From the NCBI GenBank assembly GCA_038209745.1, contig JBBQXJ010000092.1, positions 1-18,209 on the forward strand: DNA of 18,209 nucleotides, in the 5' to 3' direction. Positions within the stretch are counted from its first letter, which is position 1. Every line of letters starts with the position of its first letter. Position numbers: made by a program. Below, piece after piece: positions 3,001 to 15,000 of this stretch. Source of the stretch: Verrucomicrobiota bacterium (GTDB taxonomy: Bacteria > Verrucomicrobiota > Verrucomicrobiia > Limisphaerales > CANJSG01).

Positions 3001-6000
3001 ACGGTTGGCCCAGGCGATCAAGTCCATGATGTCGCCGGTGGACTCAAGGCCGAAGAGGAACAGGGCTTCGGCCTTCTCGATGCGTCCGCCGCCAAGGACC
3101 GTTTGTCCCAGTTCTGAAATCCGTTGGTGATGGGTCACGTCAACCGCTGTGCTCGACATGGTTGACAAGGTAGGGAGGCGGGAAGCGAGCGCAAGAACGG
3201 ATGCGAAACGCCGGGAATGAACCGCGGATTTTCCGAGAGGTGCCCTGCGAATCGGCGGCGATCCAAGAGTCCGCTATTTTGCGACCGGGGCGAGTGCTTT
3301 GCCGTCAAATCCGGCCGATTTCAGGATCGAGGATTGAAACCGCCCCACATGGTAGTTGTGGCAGGTGGTGCAGTCGGCTCTGACGAACGCGGGTTGATGA
3401 CAGGAAGCGCAGGAAGTTTGGGTGACGCCGCCGAAATTGCTGTGCGCGATGAAAGCGTCCCTTTGTCCCGGCTTGTAGGCACTCGCGAATGCGTCTGGAT
3501 CGGCTGTCACCTTCAGAGAATGACAGGTCTGACACCCTTGACCCTCCAACAGACTGACGTGGGCCGAATGGGCAAAACGGGTGAACTTGTGCTCCATCCG
3601 GTCGGGCCGCCGTCCCGTCCAGTTGACGCGGAAGTCGGGCTTCGAATCGATGCTGTGGCACTTGGCACAAAGCCCGGGGGCCTTGGCTCCCGCCACTTCG
3701 TCGAACAGCGCCCCGGCAACCGCGGGAAGTGCGGTCTTATTCGTGTCCACGGTCAGATTCATCCATTCGGTGAGGAAGCGGTCGGCGTGTCCGCGCGGCC
3801 GATATTTCAAGGCAAACGACGCATCGGCGCTATACCAGCCGCCCAGGTTCACGCGGACATCGGGCGGAGCGGTTTTGACGGCGGTGGCTTTGGCCAAGGG
3901 AGGCGAGGGCATAAGTTCCGTGTCGGCTGCCTCGCCCTTGGTCCGGTAGTTGATGACTTCGTCCTGGAGACGGGGGAAGCCGGAAGCGAACGCTGTGCGA
4001 ATCACATCGGAGGTGATGAACGCCGTGATTGACTCCTGTTCATGGCTGGTCAGCTGTCGACCGAGCGACTTGGTCAGACGTTCGATCAGTTCGTCCTGGC
4101 CACGAGTGACCACGTCGAAGATCAAGCCTTTGATGCCCCACGCCACGGTCTGGGCCGCCGCGAGCTTCGCGGTATCGGTCTTTGAAATGTCGGATAAATC
4201 CGCTTCTCCCAAGGTTCCCATGGCGGAAAGAACCTTCGGGTCTGCCGCCAATAGGAGGCGTAGGAAGGGCGTCATCGGCTGTTCGGCGTCCTCCGGCCAT
4301 TGGCCGATGCCGAACTTGCCCGTCAGGCTGCGGTCGTCGAATCGAGGCAGGCCGATGAACGTGAGCCCGATCTTTACGGCGCCCTTGCCCTTGATCTGGT
4401 CGTCGTGGCAGGGCGCACAGGTCACCTCGTAGGGTTTGAGGGTCATGCTGGCGCCCTTGAGGTCGGGTTCGTGGCAACTGACGCAGGAGGTCGGCGCCGA
4501 GGGGGCGGACGCCGCGTCGGTGAAGTGGTGCTTCAGGTGGGAATCATGGTCGAAGATGATCCGGGTTCGCCGGGTGAACGGCTCTTTGGGAAACGGAGGA
4601 TGACCCGCCGCGAATCCGGAAAACTGGACGGAGTGGCAGCTTTGACACTGCATGTCGGTGATCGTCCGCAGGTCGTGGTTCGCGCCGAGATGCTCTTGAT
4701 GGCAGACAGCACAGTCCAGTTGCTGGGCGGCGGAGTCGTGCCTCCGACTGGCCAAGGAGGCGACTGCCAGGCTGGCAGTCAGCTTTCCGGTGGGCTTTCG
4801 GCCCAGCACGGCCTCGGTCAGGAGCTTGAGCGTCTCCTCGGGCAAGGCATGAGGCCGAAATGGCTCGCTGCCGACGTTGTGACAGTCGAGGCAAAGCCGG
4901 CCGTCTGTCGCGAGGTGGTTCGTCCCTGTGAGCCAACGGGCGGGCGGGCCTTCCAGTCCGGGGTGGCAATCGGAGCATTTAGAACCGGTGAAAGCGTGTG
5001 AAGCACTGAGACCACCGGGAGAAAGGAAATTGTTGCCTCGGCGACTGGATCCGAAAACAAACAGGATCAAGGCCAAGCTGACGGCAAATGCGCCGAGCGA
5101 GGCGAGTCCGCGCCATGAACGAAGCCCTCGCAATGGGATGCACTTCGGAATGGTGCGGCAGCAGGCTCCGTCTGGAAGCGGTCCATCGGGACAGGGGCCT
5201 CCTTGGGAAGCGGCTCGCGTGCATTGCCAGCGGTCGCCTTTGCGGAGCGGACGGCATTCAGTGGTGGCGCGACAGTTTCCCTGGGCATCGGGTCCGACGA
5301 GACATCCGGCGCCGCTGCACGTCCGGCCGCAAACCCAAGTCTGATTGGGACGCTCGTAGGCGCTCTTCTTGAAGCTGAACTGTTGCAACCAGCGTTTCAT
5401 CGGGTTCAGTGGACCAGCCACGCCAAGGCGCCGTGGACGACGGCGAAAACGATCATGGAATAGGTCAGTGGAATATGGACAAACAGCCAGCCCTTCAAGA
5501 GCCCTTGGCCGGCCAACTGCATGTCGAGATTGTTCTTGGCGCGGATCAGTTCCGTCACTTGGGTCATGATCGCCTTCTCTTCCGGGTTGAGATATCGGTC
5601 CAGCGCCTCAACCTCCGAAAGGAGCCGGAGCACTGGCTTTTGATATCCGACCAAGTGGCTGAAGATGAACCTCGGCTCGGCAAAATAGGGACGGAGCTTC
5701 TTCTCATAGAAATCCGCGATGGTGGACGAATTGGTTTGGCCAACCGAATCGATCACCACGTTCTCCACTTCTTGGCTTACCGCCGAGCGCAGGGCCGGGA
5801 TGCGCTCAAAGATCAGATTTTCGCCGGACAACGTGAGCCGGGAAGGCACCCATCGCGAGATGCCCAGACCCACGAATCCGCTGACCGCCACTCCAAGGAA
5901 GAGCACCGCCAACGTGGACTCGAGCCAACCGTGCGGCACTTTCGGACCCACATGGATGAAAAACAGGACGACCGAAAAGATGCCGGCGTAGATATGCACC

Positions 6001-12000: not shown

Positions 12001-15000
12001 ACCATGCCGGCCTTGACCTCGATGTCCACGTTGTACGGTCCGTCACCGGTCAGTTCCTTGCGGCTGAGCGCGTATTTTGCCCAGCGATGGCCCAAGGGTT
12101 CGATGCCGCGGCGCTGGATGCGGGCGCCGTTTGGTCGTCCTTGGAGGATTGTGGAAAACGGCTCAGGGCGGATGAAGGGCAATGGATCGACCGAGTAGTT
12201 GATGGCGAGAACCTGCTCCCGTTCGCTGCCGCGGAGATTCAGGGTGATGAACTTGGACTGGAGGCTGAACAGGTATTTGTCCAGTGGCAGTGTGCCGTGG
12301 TGCACATAGGAGGAATGCAGGTCCCGGACGTCCCCGTTCGGATCGAGATCGCCGGATTCAAAGACGGTCTTGCCTGCTTGGTCCTTGACCGTGACATGAA
12401 GCCAGAGGGGCCGCTCGGCATCGAAGCCGGTTGGCGCGTTGTGGCCGTCCGTCGCGTTGTTGAACTTGATGGCAAACTTGATCCCGTTCTTGTCTGCTTT
12501 GCTCACCACGAAATCGGTCAGTTGATAGGCCGCCCGCAGCAACTTCACCCTCTCCTTCTGGAGTTCGGCCAAAAGCTTGAACTGGTCGTTCAAGATGGCC
12601 CGCGCATCATAACGGTCGTCCACCGACTCCCAGCGTTTGGGAAATTTTGCTCCGGCCTTGACCGTATCCTCAAATTTATCGATGCCCCATCCGGCCTTGT
12701 AGTCGAAAGTCAGCCACTCGCGCATGGTTGCGAGGGCGGCTGCCTTGTCGTTGTGGGGAAAGAATCCCGGATGGACGATCGAGTAGTCCGGACCTGGGAA
12801 CATATGGCTGGTCAGCTTGCGGGGTTCGGTCGGCACGCCTCCGACGATGGCTGCGGGTCCCATTGCGTAGCCGGATTTTTTGCCTTGTTCCAGGCCCATG
12901 TGGCAGTCCTGACAAGTGGTCCCAGCGAGGGAAGCGGGAGAGTTCTTGAATGAGCTGAACGCCTCCTCGAGGCGGAACCCGTTCATCAAGGTGACATCGT
13001 GGCAGGTGCCGCAAAACGCGGATTCAGTGAGCTGGAAGAACTTCTTGGCGTCGGTGTGGATCTTTCGGCCCTGAGTCACATTGTTCGTCACGACCCGGTA
13101 GACCTTGGGCTCGCCGAGGACGCGCATCAGCTCCTTGTTGCCCGTCGGTCCGTAAACCGGAGCCAGAATGTCACCCTTTTCGAGGGCAAACCGTCCGCTC
13201 ACCTTGCCGTATGGGGTGTTCATCCGGTGGCAGACGATGCAGGTGATGCCCTCGCGCGATGTCGGGGTGCGGTCCATGTTGCTCATGAAGGTGGACTCTC
13301 CGAGGTTCATGCCCACTTGGGTGTGGCAGCGGATGCAGAAGTCGCCGTTCGAGCCGCTGGTCAGCTTGGTGATCGTCGCCTGCATGGCATTGAACACCGG
13401 GCTCAACTGGGCGTAGGCGTGGGACGAGACGGACCATTCGCGGTAGTGGTTCGGATGGCAGGTGCGGCATGTCGCCGCCGACGGATACGAATCTTCGACG
13501 AACAGATTTTCGTGGGCGGCGAAGGAATCGATCTTCTCGGCTCCTGCGGCGGGTTTTCCGGAGCCTGCCTGGGCCAGGATATACTCAACCAGTCCGTCCT
13601 TCTTGCCTTCGGGCGAATCCAACTGTCCCGCGCTCGACGGCGTATTGAACAGCAAGGGAAGGAGCAGCAATGATGCGAATCGGAGTGCCACGAACTCTCG
13701 TTGCCTGGTAGATAGTGTTTTCATGGTGACTGTGATTGTTCGGCGTTTCTCAGCGGCTCAAAGTCGACCAAAATCAATCGGCATCCGCCCAAAGGGCGGA
13801 GTAAGCCGAGGAACGTCGGGATTCGATTTGAAATCTTCGCCACTTTGCCCTGAAGGCGGACGAGATCGGCATAGGTCGTTCTCAATGGGCGGAGCCCGAA
13901 TTCGGTTTGAATATCGGACGGTTCCCGCCACAGCTGAAACATCGCGGCGAAGACATCCTGGCGATGGATTGGATTCTTAGGAAACCATCGGTGAAGCCGC
14001 AACTTTTCTCTTGAAGGGATTCTAGGTGTGGAGGCTCAGGAGGTTGTTCATGAGGAGACGGAGCCGTGAGACGGGCGGGCGGAAGCTGCGGGCCTTGCGC
14101 TTGACGGCGGAGAAGACGCGGTTGAGAGCTTCGAGGAGGGCGTTGGTCGTTTCGCGTAACCAGTGCGCTATGACGCCCTCGAGGTGCCGTTCGATCATCC
14201 GTGCGGTTTTCGCCCTAGCCGCAAACAGCGCGGCCGCATGCTTGCCGGCGGTCCAGCGCACCCGAAGGCACCAGGCGCGCCGTTTGCGCCGGGCCAGCGC
14301 GACGTCCGGGATCGCATAGATGGCTGGGAGGATCCCCCGCATCTGGGGCGCCTTCACGCTCGTTAGATTGCTTTTCAGCAGTCCGGCGTAACGCGCCGCC
14401 TGCGCGACGAGATTCGCGCGCACCCCGGCGATGTAGGCCGGACCCATCTCGATCGAGACCTCCGTGATCGTCCGCGGAGGGCCGTTGTGTTCGCCGAGCG
14501 CGGTGACGAAGGCGCCCCACGTGGCCGCGTCCTTGCCCGGCGTGGCGAAGCGCACGCGTCTGCCGATCAGGTCGCAAAACACGCCGACGTAATGGTGCGC
14601 TTTGCGCACGCTCAACTGGTCGCACCCTACGCAGACCACTCCGCTCCAATCCACCTTGGGCCACGCCGCCTCGCCGGCCGCGATGCTTTCCCCATTCCAC
14701 CGCTCGGGCGTCTCCTTGATCCACAACCGCGCCACTCCATCCAGTTCGCCCCGCGCGGTGCCCGCATTCGGCGCATACTCGCAGCGCGTCACCCGCCAGT
14801 GCCGGCCCAAACCGTGAAGTTCGTGAAACAATTGCTCAGGTGTCATCCCTCCTGCCGGTCACGCTCCCGCCCGCTACCCCTTGAAAACAGCGAGGAACCG
14901 GACGAAACATCCCGGCCGTCCAATCAGGAACAGCCGGGACGATCAGACAAAGATAGAGCCATCATACGGACTACGGGCGGTGGTTGGTAAAACAGAGACA

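Follow-up and report, generated by a model that had tools for sequence, protein, structure and literature searches.

A seven-gene cluster in the window (the whole analysed stretch of 18,209 nucleotides, which is one contig) represents the ptdABCDEFG (penta/tetra/deca-haem) operon in Verrucomicrobiota, and is best explained, with a probability that we put at about 0.55, as a possibly cNMP-regulated wire in two modules that would carry electrons from NAD(P)H to the periplasm. The genes are co-directional on the minus strand (3274-13724) and were labelled A to G:

3274..5421, minus strand: A, decahaem cytochrome c with one transmembrane (TM) anchor, PtdG-like (10 CxxCH motifs)
5140..5400, minus strand: N-terminal cytoplasmic eight-Cys domain of A, ahead of the TM helix (invariant Cys)
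5406..6215, minus strand: B, candidate dihaem cytochrome b with five TM segments, PtdF-like, 269 aa (invariant His pairs)
6212..7942, minus strand: C, cytoplasmic cNMP and Fe-S protein, PtdE-like, 576 aa (Pfam, Cys motifs)
8057..9067, minus strand: D, tetrahaem cytochrome c with N-terminal signal or anchor, PtdD-like, 336 aa (4 CxxCH motifs)
9113..10372, minus strand: E, membrane-anchored FAD/NAD(P)H/2Fe-2S reductase, PtdC-like, 419 aa (Pfam, NCBIfam)
10391..11818, minus strand: F, outer-membrane beta-barrel, PtdB-like, 475 aa (AF2 model, Foldseek)
11802..13724, minus strand: G, pentahaem cytochrome c with signal peptide, PtdA-like, 640 aa (5 CxxCH motifs)
13725..13942, no strand: non-coding stretch upstream of G (start of G at 13724)

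All seven genes of the preliminary description were recovered, with the same CxxCH counts for A, G and D (10/5/4) and the same Pfam results for B, C, E and F. The cluster end had been placed at 13942, where no gene boundary lies. The 93-codon ORF at 13721-14002 had no conserved counterpart in 80 related loci, and no promoter-like site above chance was detected in 13725..13942. One hydrophobic segment was found in each of A, D and E, five in B and none in C.

The ptdABCDEFG operon was named in a preprint (bioRxiv 10.1101/2023.11.21.568154), whose account of it calls the function 'completely unknown' and raises nitrogen cycling as an alternative, the operon being found in Nitrospirales. Judged by gene order and domain content as listed in the preprint, the seven architectures and their succession agree with those of the cluster in the window, which can no longer be called undescribed. 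Cytochrome c552 of T. tepidum, given there as the homologue of PtdA, was also found as a relative of G. The window adds a Verrucomicrobiota member to the ptd operons. New here are the eight-Cys N-terminal domain of A, the 16 Cys and intact cNMP cassette of C, the C-B fusions, the likeness of barrel F to 18-strand channels, the common occurrence of the G/F pair with the core and the spread over at least nine phyla.

Gene neighbourhoods were compared in 80 loci with at least nine phylum labels. Relatives occur in at least nine phyla, and the cluster extends beyond Verrucomicrobiota; within that group, the earlier prevalence of 5 in 201 agrees with the 11 of 401 sampled genomes found here (source genome included). 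The gene immediately upstream of B is C in 70/73 loci, and the one immediately downstream is A in 76/76. Among the 48 well-flanked loci (9 kb or more of sequence upstream of B), E was present in 45, D in 42 and both F and G in 33, and the view that the outer part is not conserved with the core (5-haem protein in 1 of 4 loci) was therefore abandoned. G-F-E behaves as a moving unit: in 14 loci it is colinear with D-C-B-A, in 17 it diverges from it. A different outer module was found in loci whose A is shorter. An all-against-all ORF comparison of the 80 loci identified no other widely conserved gene. C and B are naturally fused in two proteins (P0202 and P0268, of 843 and 856 aa), an arrangement that puts the Fe-S domain of C and the N-terminal end of B on the cytoplasmic side.

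Protein B carries two pairs of His, H74/H88 and H247/H261, each spaced as H-x13-H and, as claimed before, invariant (22/22 aligned homologues). The same spacing is seen in cytochrome b, NOX and other transmembrane proteins with two b haems, and B is a candidate dihaem cytochrome b. It has a helical, cytoplasmic insert of ~110 aa between TM4 and TM5, and its AF2 model has a pLDDT of 81. Foldseek returned no match to the model at E <= 0.001, and the best hits of a VIA fold search were sensor domains (Z 10.2), at the noise level of helical bundles; the matches listed include a single solved dihaem b protein, E. coli superoxide oxidase CybB, which also scored in the noise range (Z 7.6, rmsd 3.8, 129 residues aligned). 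The likeness to DUF4405 was reproduced below the Pfam cut-off (E 6.2e-5, 23.9 bits against 26.7), as was that to Ferric_reduct (E 0.014, also below cut-off), and 17 of 22 relatives of B matched DUF4405 at E <= 0.01. However, hhalign against bona fide DUF4405 proteins gave a probability of just 11% over 26 columns, covering the W-x2-H-x13-H helix only, and the apparent link is weak. Binding of haem b was shown for a recombinant DUF4405 protein (PMC11334425).

Protein C contains two cNMP-binding regions (Pfam cNMP_binding, 1.9e-25) and Fer4 families, and its NCBIfam and PDB relatives include HydN, HycB, DmsB, HybA and ArrB. Its 16 Cys, all kept in at least 99% of 68 homologues, form four ferredoxin-type motifs and would suffice to bind four [4Fe-4S] clusters. 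G176, E177 and R186 of the phosphate-binding cassette FGEIAAL..R.PRT(A/S)T are retained in 68/68 homologues; the cNMP site looks functional, and regulation of the wire itself is therefore likely. Class III cyclase genes, whose products bear three kinds of sensor domain, were found in 5/80 loci; three of these five genomes have only 2 to 5 cyclase genes in total, but the other two have 22 and 86, so that the adjacency is not statistically secure. Protein E has FAD_binding_6, NAD_binding_1 and Fer2 domains and matches the flavohaemoprotein reductase module (NAD(P)H/FAD) of NCBIfam at 6.6e-80. An N-terminal TM helix (hydrophobic segment 9-27) anchors this reductase, described earlier as cytoplasmic, to the membrane; such a segment lies within the first 120 residues in 57/58 homologues.

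Gene A may start at the GTG at 5421, but the ATG at 5400 (708 aa) is likelier since most homologues have M at that aligned column, and residues of the N-terminal domain are numbered from it. All Pfam matches (Cytochrome_C7, Paired_CXXCH_1 and the MtrC/MtrF domain) fall within the haem part, and complete homologues have 10 haem motifs, with 12 in one. Ahead of the single hydrophobic segment (residues 105-123; TM at ~5053-5109), C24, C33, C43, C49, C60, C70, C80 and C87 were invariant in 30/30 homologues from several phyla, together with W22, G25, P37, G41, P51 and R62. This domain matched no Pfam family, no PDB sequence (best E 0.13) and nothing in the ESM Atlas. Protein D matched Cytochrome_C554 (7e-14) and has its hydrophobic segment at residues 16-34.

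For protein F, neither Pfam nor NCBIfam gave a match, in line with the earlier finding of no family, and the C-terminus ...ELQVKF was confirmed, its last residue F being at least 90% conserved. Apart from an N-terminal signal helix, the AF2 model (pLDDT 76.7, pTM 0.73) is all-beta; DSSP assigns ~20 strand elements to it. Its best structural matches in the PDB are 18-strand substrate channels (Foldseek: MOMP, 6.7e-11; AlgE, OccK/OprD and chitoporin, probability 1.00). The proposal of an outer-membrane barrel is thus upheld by the model, whereas a route 'on to the cell surface' is unsupported, because F resembles substrate channels and no outer-surface cytochrome is encoded in the window. Protein G matched Cytochrome_C554 in Pfam, with a partial, two-haem only match to the NapC/NirT family, and ExtKL partially in NCBIfam (5e-10). 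Its best solved relative is the pentahaem c552 of T. tepidum (5ze8, E 7e-7); another match fell in the C-terminal part, and a large C-terminal region is free of haem motifs. Five non-motif His (H71, H102, H223, H307, H428) are invariant in 37/37 homologues, and no extra Cys is present.

In the preferred reading, PtdC (E), held by its one helix, would oxidise NAD(P)H on FAD and hand electrons one at a time via its 2Fe-2S cluster to PtdE (C), whose four [4Fe-4S] clusters would relay them to the cytoplasmic face of PtdF (B). Two b haems between the parallel helices TM3 and TM5, probably ligated by H74 and H247 on the inner side and H88 and H261 on the outer side, would carry the electron across the membrane to the periplasmic decahaem domain of PtdG (A), which its TM helix and a presumed metal-binding role of the cytoplasmic eight-Cys domain may tie to the PtdE/PtdF assembly. 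Tetrahaem PtdD (D) and pentahaem PtdA (G) would pass electrons onward, with PtdB (F) as putative outer-membrane channel; the acceptor may be an extracellular solid, a humic substance or a soluble compound entering through PtdB. The intact cNMP site of PtdE suggests that cAMP or cGMP may switch the flux. Parts, motifs, synteny and fusions fit the NAD(P)H-to-periplasm conduit first proposed, whereas we infer its quinone independence and direction of flow, along with cofactor loading, transfer order and terminal acceptor. Both the membrane potential and the energetic descent from NAD(P)H favour outward flow and would oppose flow inward.

The same inner module could instead serve a periplasmic reductase: PtdB would admit a soluble compound (for example a nitrogen oxide, a sulfur species, or a small quinone or humic molecule), which PtdA would reduce with electrons derived from NAD(P)H. 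We regard this as a real possibility, if a less probable one. It accords with the channel-like matches of F and with the lack of an outer-surface cytochrome in the window. Of all the proteins in the set, G is also the best conserved between phyla (for instance, 54-60% identity in SAR324, Poribacteria, Latescibacterota and Proteobacteria), as is commoner among enzymes than among relays. Moreover, it belongs to a pentahaem family with ExtKL/MccSep, reported as a sulfur-respiration enzyme, and is adjoined by a porin gene as described for extKL. However, the five invariant His of G suffice for five bis-His haems, no open catalytic haem is evident and G has no extra Cys or Sec, while confidence in the barrel model of F is medium and barrels match one another generically in fold searches. 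In Geobacter, small barrels have also been suggested to sheathe cytochromes.

The remaining alternatives alter the inner module. B could be a quinone-reactive cytochrome b that oxidises quinol, linking the quinone pool to the haem-c chain, or else links NAD(P)H to quinone; either way the path would depend on quinones. Many dihaem b subunits have quinone sites (NarI, PhsC, the cytochrome b561 family), MsrQ has been suggested to work with quinol as well as with the flavin reductase Fre, and CybB, listed among the matches of the B model within the noise range, is a quinone-reducing b561. We consider this unlikely, as the tight coupling of E, C and B (45/48, 70/73, and the fusions) indicates a dedicated cytoplasmic donor, and the cluster has no quinol dehydrogenase of NrfD, NapC/NirT or CymA type, the NapC/NirT match of G being partial. 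That C is a cNMP-responsive sensor or regulator, E an unrelated reductase, and the haem proteins fed by the ordinary respiratory chain appears improbable: cNMP-binding domains are typical of regulators such as the CRP/FNR family and the cassette of C is intact, but Pfam found no DNA-binding domain in C, its C-terminal half is a four-cluster electron-transfer module of HydN/HycB/DmsB type with all 16 Cys kept, and the stop of C overlaps the start of B by 4 nt in the window. The four-cluster motif, and the fusion of C to the membrane protein B in some organisms, weaken the earlier concern that C might be no more than a regulator. Least probable of all is inward flow, in which the haem chain would oxidise periplasmic or extracellular donors and NAD(P)+ would be reduced via B, C and E. 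Multihaem chains are reversible in principle. According to the preprint, ptd genes occur in Nitrospirales that oxidise nitrite and so require reverse electron flow (bioRxiv 10.1101/2023.11.21.568154). Such flow would nevertheless run against the membrane potential and several hundred mV uphill to NAD(P)+, with no ion-translocating subunit found in the cluster by Pfam or NCBIfam, and the closest relatives of the reductase module of E are NAD(P)H oxidisers.

The ISL3 transposase noted beside the cluster is present as a fragment at 14022-14846. The contig, earlier called low-GC, is so relative to the genome mean (60.8% against 63.3%) but not in absolute terms; the cluster itself, at 59.9%, lies within the lowest 3% of the 10-kb windows of the genome.

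The window takes up the entire contig C92 of an assembly of 4.58 Mb in 140 contigs, and seven tightly packed genes, referred to here as A to G, lie on its minus strand and are read in the order G-F-E-D-C-B-A. The seven-gene cluster was confirmed in its genes, CxxCH counts and domains, and the domain calls of the preliminary description, including the sub-threshold DUF4405 and Ferric_reduct matches on B, were reproduced by Pfam and NCBIfam.

Features of the window
11802-13724, minus strand: G (PtdA-like), 640 aa, five CxxCH motifs
10391-11818, minus strand: F (PtdB-like), 475 aa, without a Pfam or NCBIfam family
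9113-10372, minus strand: E (PtdC-like), 419 aa, reductase
8057-9067, minus strand: D (PtdD-like), 336 aa, four CxxCH motifs
6212-7942, minus strand: C (PtdE-like), 576 aa, cNMP and Fe-S protein
5406-6215, minus strand: B (PtdF-like), 269 aa, membrane protein
3274-5421, minus strand: A (PtdG-like), 715 aa, or 708 aa if read from ATG 5400, ten CxxCH motifs
2056-3168: BioB, below the cluster, beside a GDSL/DUF7133 protein; ordinary flanking genes
14022-14846, minus strand: ISL3 transposase fragment above the cluster, a truncated ORF of 274 aa with two partial matched stretches
15073-16527: GatA, above the cluster, beyond the ISL3 fragment
16572-17102, minus strand: membrane protein of 176 aa without any Pfam family, beyond gatA and outside the cluster
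17714-18208, minus strand: STAS-domain protein cut by the contig end, beyond gatA and outside the cluster

G and F overlap by 17 nt and C and B by 4 nt; F and E are separated by 18 nt, E and D by 45 nt and D and C by 114 nt. Between B and A there is an overlap of 16 nt, or a gap of 5 nt if A starts at the ATG. Position 13942, previously proposed as the end of the cluster, falls inside a non-coding stretch upstream of G, and a 93-codon ORF located there (13721-14002) showed no conservation in the related loci. A promoter and terminator scan of 3000-14200 gave counts at the level of shuffled sequence.

By order and content, the cluster is a member of the already named operon ptdABCDEFG (bioRxiv 10.1101/2023.11.21.568154), here from a new phylum and habitat. 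As described in the accessible part of that preprint, its seven products are the same, in the same order: PtdA is a pentahaem whose C-terminal part is free of haem, PtdB a porin, PtdC an FAD/NAD(P) oxidoreductase, PtdD a tetrahaem, PtdE a 4Fe-4S protein that binds cNMP, PtdF a ferric-reductase-like transmembrane protein and PtdG a decahaem. The pentahaem cytochrome c552 of T. tepidum was found independently in both studies, as a homologue of PtdA there and of G here. The preprint places the operon in Alpha- and Gammaproteobacteria, Nitrospirales and Planctomycetes of marine and saline sites, whereas the window copy belongs to a Verrucomicrobiota genome with near-identical DNA in sediment and soil runs, no RNA run being among the matches listed. 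High transcription of ptdAB is reported there for marine Alphaproteobacteria in an ocean oxygen-deficient zone; a porin-cytochrome complex for extracellular electron transfer (EET) or a role in nitrogen cycling is suggested, and the function is said to remain 'completely unknown'. No second paper naming the operon was found in a full-text literature search. The novelty claimed in the preliminary description must be reduced, since the cluster had already been named. New here are a cytoplasmic 8-Cys domain in PtdG, a PtdE that fits four clusters and has an intact cNMP site, PtdE-PtdF fusions, a modular outer part and a channel-like barrel.

The membrane protein B has five hydrophobic segments; in its AF2 model (pLDDT 81, pTM 0.70), four transmembrane (TM) helices at the N-terminal end are followed by a helical insert, at about residues 130-235, and then by the final TM helix. 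Two His pairs, H74/H88 on the third helix and H247/H261 on the fifth, are invariant in 22/22 homologues of 47-72% identity. A spacing of 13 residues between His on a helix is a hallmark of transmembrane dihaem b proteins, and the inner and the outer His pair of B can each hold one haem, making it a candidate dihaem b. C-B fusions are known from two database proteins (843 and 856 aa), in which cNMP and Fer4 domains precede the B domain; the N-terminus of B should therefore be cytoplasmic, with the third and fifth helices parallel.

Assignment of B to a described family was approached from several sides. The DUF4405 model (PF14358) scores 23.9 bits, below its gathering cut-off of 26.7; 17 of the 22 relatives match it weakly (E <= 0.01, best 1.8e-5), some database homologues carry a precomputed PF14358 label, and the four central His that mark DUF4405 are found in the B sequence, on TM3 and TM5. 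Comparison of the B profile with 11 Verrucomicrobiota DUF4405 proteins by hhalign gave a probability of 11% and an E-value of 0.0028 over 26 columns, a stretch that corresponds to W-x2-H-x13-H, the haem helix alone. For the ferric reductase domain (FRD, PF01794) the match has E 0.014 and 15.9 bits, where the cut-off is 28; with its five hydrophobic segments B falls short of the six TM helices of NOX and FRD, yet its His pairs are likewise on the third and fifth helices. With both Pfam scores below cut-off and five helices rather than the six of FRD, B was not formally assigned to either family. Its nearest ESM Atlas cluster (score 0.97), automatically named 'ferric reductase like', is probably B's own family. 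Foldseek of the model against PDB returned no match at E <= 0.001, and the B profile found nothing among PDB sequences (best E 0.83). In a wide VIA-align search the best Z was 10.2 (chemoreceptor and TorS sensor helices), with CybB at 7.6; all scores lay within the noise range of helical bundles, and no fold was assigned. An apparent B-A fusion at locus L033 was discarded, a TAA stop separating the two genes.

The reductase E has an N-terminal TM helix, kept in 57/58 homologues, a module matching the flavohaemoprotein FAD/NAD module (6.6e-80, NCBIfam) and, at its C-terminus, a 2Fe-2S domain of the plant type. In C, the last 160 residues are similar to HydN (3e-18), HycB3 (1.4e-16), HycB, DmsB, HybA and ArrB. 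Their four Cys motifs (C425-C435, C461-C473, C494-C504 and C537-C553) contain 16 Cys, all conserved in at least 99% of 68 homologues, so that C fits four predicted [4Fe-4S] clusters of the HybA/NrfC/DmsB/HycB type, vs the two 4Fe-4S clusters ascribed to PtdE in the accessible text of the preprint. The cNMP_binding model matches C at 1.9e-25 (Pfam). Judged from its residues, the first cNMP domain is canonical, with an intact phosphate-binding cassette, FGEIAAL(G/S)RTPRT(A/S)T, in which G176, E177 and R186 are invariant in 68/68 homologues, and forms a putative ligand site. The second keeps the Gly and one Arg around a longer insert.

The decahaem protein A lacks an N-terminal signal peptide and has a single hydrophobic segment at residues 105-123, counted from the GTG at 5421. 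The roughly 100 residues preceding this segment are the best-conserved part of the protein and contain eight Cys (C-x8-C-x9-C-x5-C-x10-C-x9-C-x9-C-x6-C) that are invariant in 30/30 homologues from Verrucomicrobiota, Planctomycetota, SAR324, Poribacteria, Latescibacterota, Myxococcota and Proteobacteria, as are several Gly, Pro, Trp and Arg. This 8-Cys domain is predicted to be cytoplasmic, because the haem domain must mature in the periplasm. PtdG is described as periplasmic in the preprint, whereas A has a TM anchor and the conserved cytoplasmic domain, of which no mention was found in the accessible part of that text. Presumably the domain binds metal, as Fe-S or Zn, and it may attach A to the C/B assembly or contribute redox centres of its own; we speculate that the TM helix of A would make the membrane part of B and A six helices. 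No Pfam family covers the domain and no usable ESM Atlas match was obtained; its only match among PDB sequences, a Zn2Cys6 protein, was not significant (E 0.13). In a word-index search of shorter proteins, of limited sensitivity, three of eight candidates matched as stand-alone 8-Cys proteins; these are possibly fragments cut at contig ends, and none was established. At locus L049 (10804-11208), a decahaem homologue with 12 haem motifs has a partial duplication of the cytoplasmic Cys-rich domain.

For the outer part, the AF2 model of F is an all-beta barrel with a signal helix (pLDDT 76.7, medium confidence). Its Foldseek matches in PDB are led by the C. jejuni MOMP (6.7e-11), followed by AlgE, OccK/OprD and chitoporin, all 18-strand channels, vs the 26 strands of the MtrB barrel, and MtrB is absent from the best 50 matches listed. 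The model confirms F as a predicted outer-membrane barrel and does not support an MtrB-like sheath. G, the most conserved of the seven proteins across phyla (tblastn), matches the T. tepidum pentahaem c552 among PDB sequences (phmmer, 5ze8_A, E 7e-7) in its haem and C-terminal regions, and partially matches the NCBIfam ExtKL model (5e-10; curated cut-off 250 bits). These similarities place it in the pentahaem family that includes T. tepidum c552 and Geobacter ExtKL. It has no Cys outside the haem motifs and no Sec, and its five invariant non-motif His would be enough for five bis-His haems.

A word-index search gave 941 matches to B, and the B profile matched 2138 of all 50%-identity representatives at E <= 0.001 (437 at E <= 1e-30), a large and uncharacterised PtdF-like family. 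When one genome was kept per species, 243 stretches with a relative of B were obtained, the best 80 of which were used for synteny. These are labelled as 58 Verrucomicrobiota, five Planctomycetota, four Pseudomonadota, three Myxococcota, two SAR324, two Poribacteria and one each of Latescibacterota, Acidobacteriota and Gemmatimonadota, with three unlabelled, a tally skewed toward the phylum of the query and including two rows that look mis-binned. Among sampled Verrucomicrobiota, B is present in 11/401 genomes and 8/185 genera; two of these carriers are complete genomes in a single contig. In tblastn with the seven window proteins, A directly followed B in all 76 loci with enough downstream sequence, and C immediately preceded B in 70/73, lay within about 260 nt in two more and was absent from L045. 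Upstream genes were counted in the 48 loci with at least 9 kb of upstream sequence: E was found in 45, D in 42 (some weak and on the opposite strand) and F and G each in 33, a frequency that does not bear out the earlier impression that the pentahaem/barrel pair rarely accompanies the core. G, F and E travel as a set: 14 loci have them colinear with D-C-B-A, 17 have them divergent from it and two show a mixed arrangement; E occurs without G and F in 12, and none of the three is present in three. When all ORFs of at least 100 codons were compared with one another, no other widely shared family emerged, only antisense shadows of the seven. From these counts, C-B-A forms the core, which E and D generally accompany, and the outer part can be exchanged.

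Where A is shorter (about 560-590 aa, with the ten haems retained), F and G are absent, and some of these loci encode a multihaem protein of about 1200 aa with an LVIVD repeat match and a protein of about 740 aa without a Pfam family (for example L061:6-3638 and L061:3647-5860), a pair that may be an alternative outer module. The pentahaem/barrel pair is lacking at L046, L049, L053, L057, L061, L062 and L063, which carry these two proteins in its place; all but L049 have the shorter decahaem. A convergent gene for a protein of 530-630 aa with two HbpS-like domains (PF03928) was observed just downstream of the decahaem gene in eight loci, L039 (4600-6207) and seven other short-A loci.

In the most far-reaching form of the mechanism that we propose, electrons from NAD(P)H would pass through FAD, one 2Fe-2S and four 4Fe-4S clusters, and perhaps clusters of the 8-Cys domain, traverse the membrane by way of two b haems and reach a periplasmic chain of 19 haems, with cAMP or cGMP switching the export on or off. 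Taken as a whole, Ptd as a cyclic-nucleotide-gated, quinone-bypassing, NOX-like electron exporter, spread by gene transfer through at least nine phyla, is given a probability of about 0.3. Relatives of the E reductase module oxidise NAD(P)H, and the cluster is without an ion-pumping subunit; we infer an outward flow, because membrane potential and redox potential both favour it and disfavour the inward direction. Running this path would cost reducing power and membrane potential, which points to redox balancing, detoxification or nutrient mobilisation and not to classical respiration. To our knowledge, the feeds of multihaem chains for extracellular or periplasmic reduction (CymA, ImcH, CbcL) all take their electrons from the quinone pool; an entry dedicated to NAD(P)H, if true, would be a different design that dissipates energy and does not conserve it. 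B may instead have a quinone site of its own; the C-B fusions and the FAD/NAD module of E point to the NAD(P)H-fed path.

An EET role was proposed both by the ptd authors, in the accessible part of their preprint, and in the preliminary description, which had electrons leaving NAD(P)H for the periplasm and continuing to the cell surface. The inner-membrane part of that proposal is still the best available reading; its extension to the cell surface is more doubtful, the F model being channel-like and no surface cytochrome gene being present within the window. A chain ending at a soluble substrate that enters through F is quite conceivable, if still tentative, and is rated somewhat above a true surface conduit.

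Cyclic-nucleotide control of an electron-transfer chain would, if true, be unusual. Class III adenylate/guanylate cyclases with GAF, 7TMR-DISM or CHASE2 sensor domains were encoded in 5/80 loci (L021:34-1731, L046:155-2140, L051:17039-18889, L052:9-1472 and L061:14306-16297), belonging to SAR324, Verrucomicrobiota, Planctomycetia and an alphaproteobacterium, and directly flank the ptd cluster in three of the five. Three of these genomes have two, two and five cyclase genes and the other two 22 and 86; the three cyclase matches in the window's own genome are all on other contigs. This adjacency is a hint. The 8-Cys domain, the cluster count and cNMP site of PtdE and the PtdE-PtdF fusions offer direct handles for biochemistry.

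Like ferric-reductase-domain, DUF4405 and MsrQ proteins, B has two His pairs on two parallel TM helices with 13-residue spacing, and NOX and MsrQ-Fre have an NAD(P)H/flavin donor, as proposed for B. It differs in having five TM helices rather than six, in a cytoplasmic insert of about 110 aa, in a proposed donor path through one 2Fe-2S and four 4Fe-4S clusters where these proteins are reduced directly from flavin, and in a proposed multihaem c acceptor where they serve a flavinylated protein or MsrP. According to the accessible text of PMC11334425, a recombinant DUF4405 protein binds haem b, and proteins of this type are proposed to take up electrons on the cytoplasmic side and deliver them to an extracytosolic acceptor. 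The ApbE family gave no match among the window proteins scanned (Pfam).

In the transmembrane Hmc, Tmc and Qrc complexes of sulfate reducers, a multihaem c in the periplasm, a cytochrome b in the membrane and an Fe-S protein that is cytoplasmic or peripheral together pass electrons across the membrane, a layout like the one proposed for the cluster. Their membrane and Fe-S subunits are NarI/HdrE- and HdrD-like or NrfD-like, families other than those of the window, and electrons are thought to flow from the periplasm to the cytoplasm or quinone; we know of no FNR-like NAD(P)H module or cNMP domain in them. In Geobacter ExtHIJKL, a c552/PHC pentahaem gene stands beside an outer-membrane barrel gene, as G does beside F; as far as the accessible parts of the sources go, ExtKL/MccSep is reported as a selenoenzyme of sulfur respiration, whereas G has no Sec or Cys outside the haem motifs, is a single 640-aa polypeptide and is joined to an inner-membrane module that is probably NAD(P)H-fed (PMC11976967; bioRxiv 10.1101/2025.11.18.688581). 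MtrCAB, as described in the accessible part of PMC5615132, likewise has multihaem cytochromes encoded with an outer-membrane barrel; the window has no gene for an MtrC-like surface cytochrome or a CymA-like quinol dehydrogenase. A Verrucomicrobia porin-multihaem cytochrome (MHC) cluster in the same source, whose barrel has at least 20 strands and whose periplasmic partner carries 8 haems, is set apart from ours by that description. The EET3 and EET4 clusters (bioRxiv 10.64898/2026.05.27.727921), with MHCs of 8-13 haems and no inner-membrane parts mentioned, were compared by their text and not equated with it.

A quick tree built from the C protein places the window with four Pedosphaera/subdivision-3 sequences (SH-aLRT 99), and every row of the next two supported sets around it is Verrucomicrobiota. 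This kinship does not indicate a recent import from another phylum, a worry raised in the preliminary description. The C proteins of L043 (labelled Acidiferrales) and L069 (Acetobacteraceae) are nested in Chthoniobacterales/Verrucomicrobiia sequences, L043 at 0.04 changes per site from L028 and L069 on an end branch of 0.21, and gene transfer is no likelier an explanation than errors in binning. GC content is 63.3% for the genome, 60.8% for the contig and 59.9% for the cluster (lowest 3% of 10-kb windows), so that the contig, earlier called low-GC, is low relative to the genome mean only and not in absolute terms. GC3 is 0.72-0.79 in the seven genes vs 0.82-0.87 in bioB, gatA and the DUF7133 gene, a composition compatible with an older acquisition.

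In four metagenome runs, the summed contig depth over 13962-15175, around the ISL3 fragment, exceeds that elsewhere in the window 3- to 5-fold, and metagenome contigs break at about 14052-14131 and at 14849, as expected of a multi-copy element. The cluster itself is spanned by metagenome DNA contigs in four runs. Across the cluster, strain variants in other metagenomes show a difference of about 0.7% from the window, and the sole indels seen among them, at 7979 and 8023, are both within the gap between D and C, so that the reading frames are kept.
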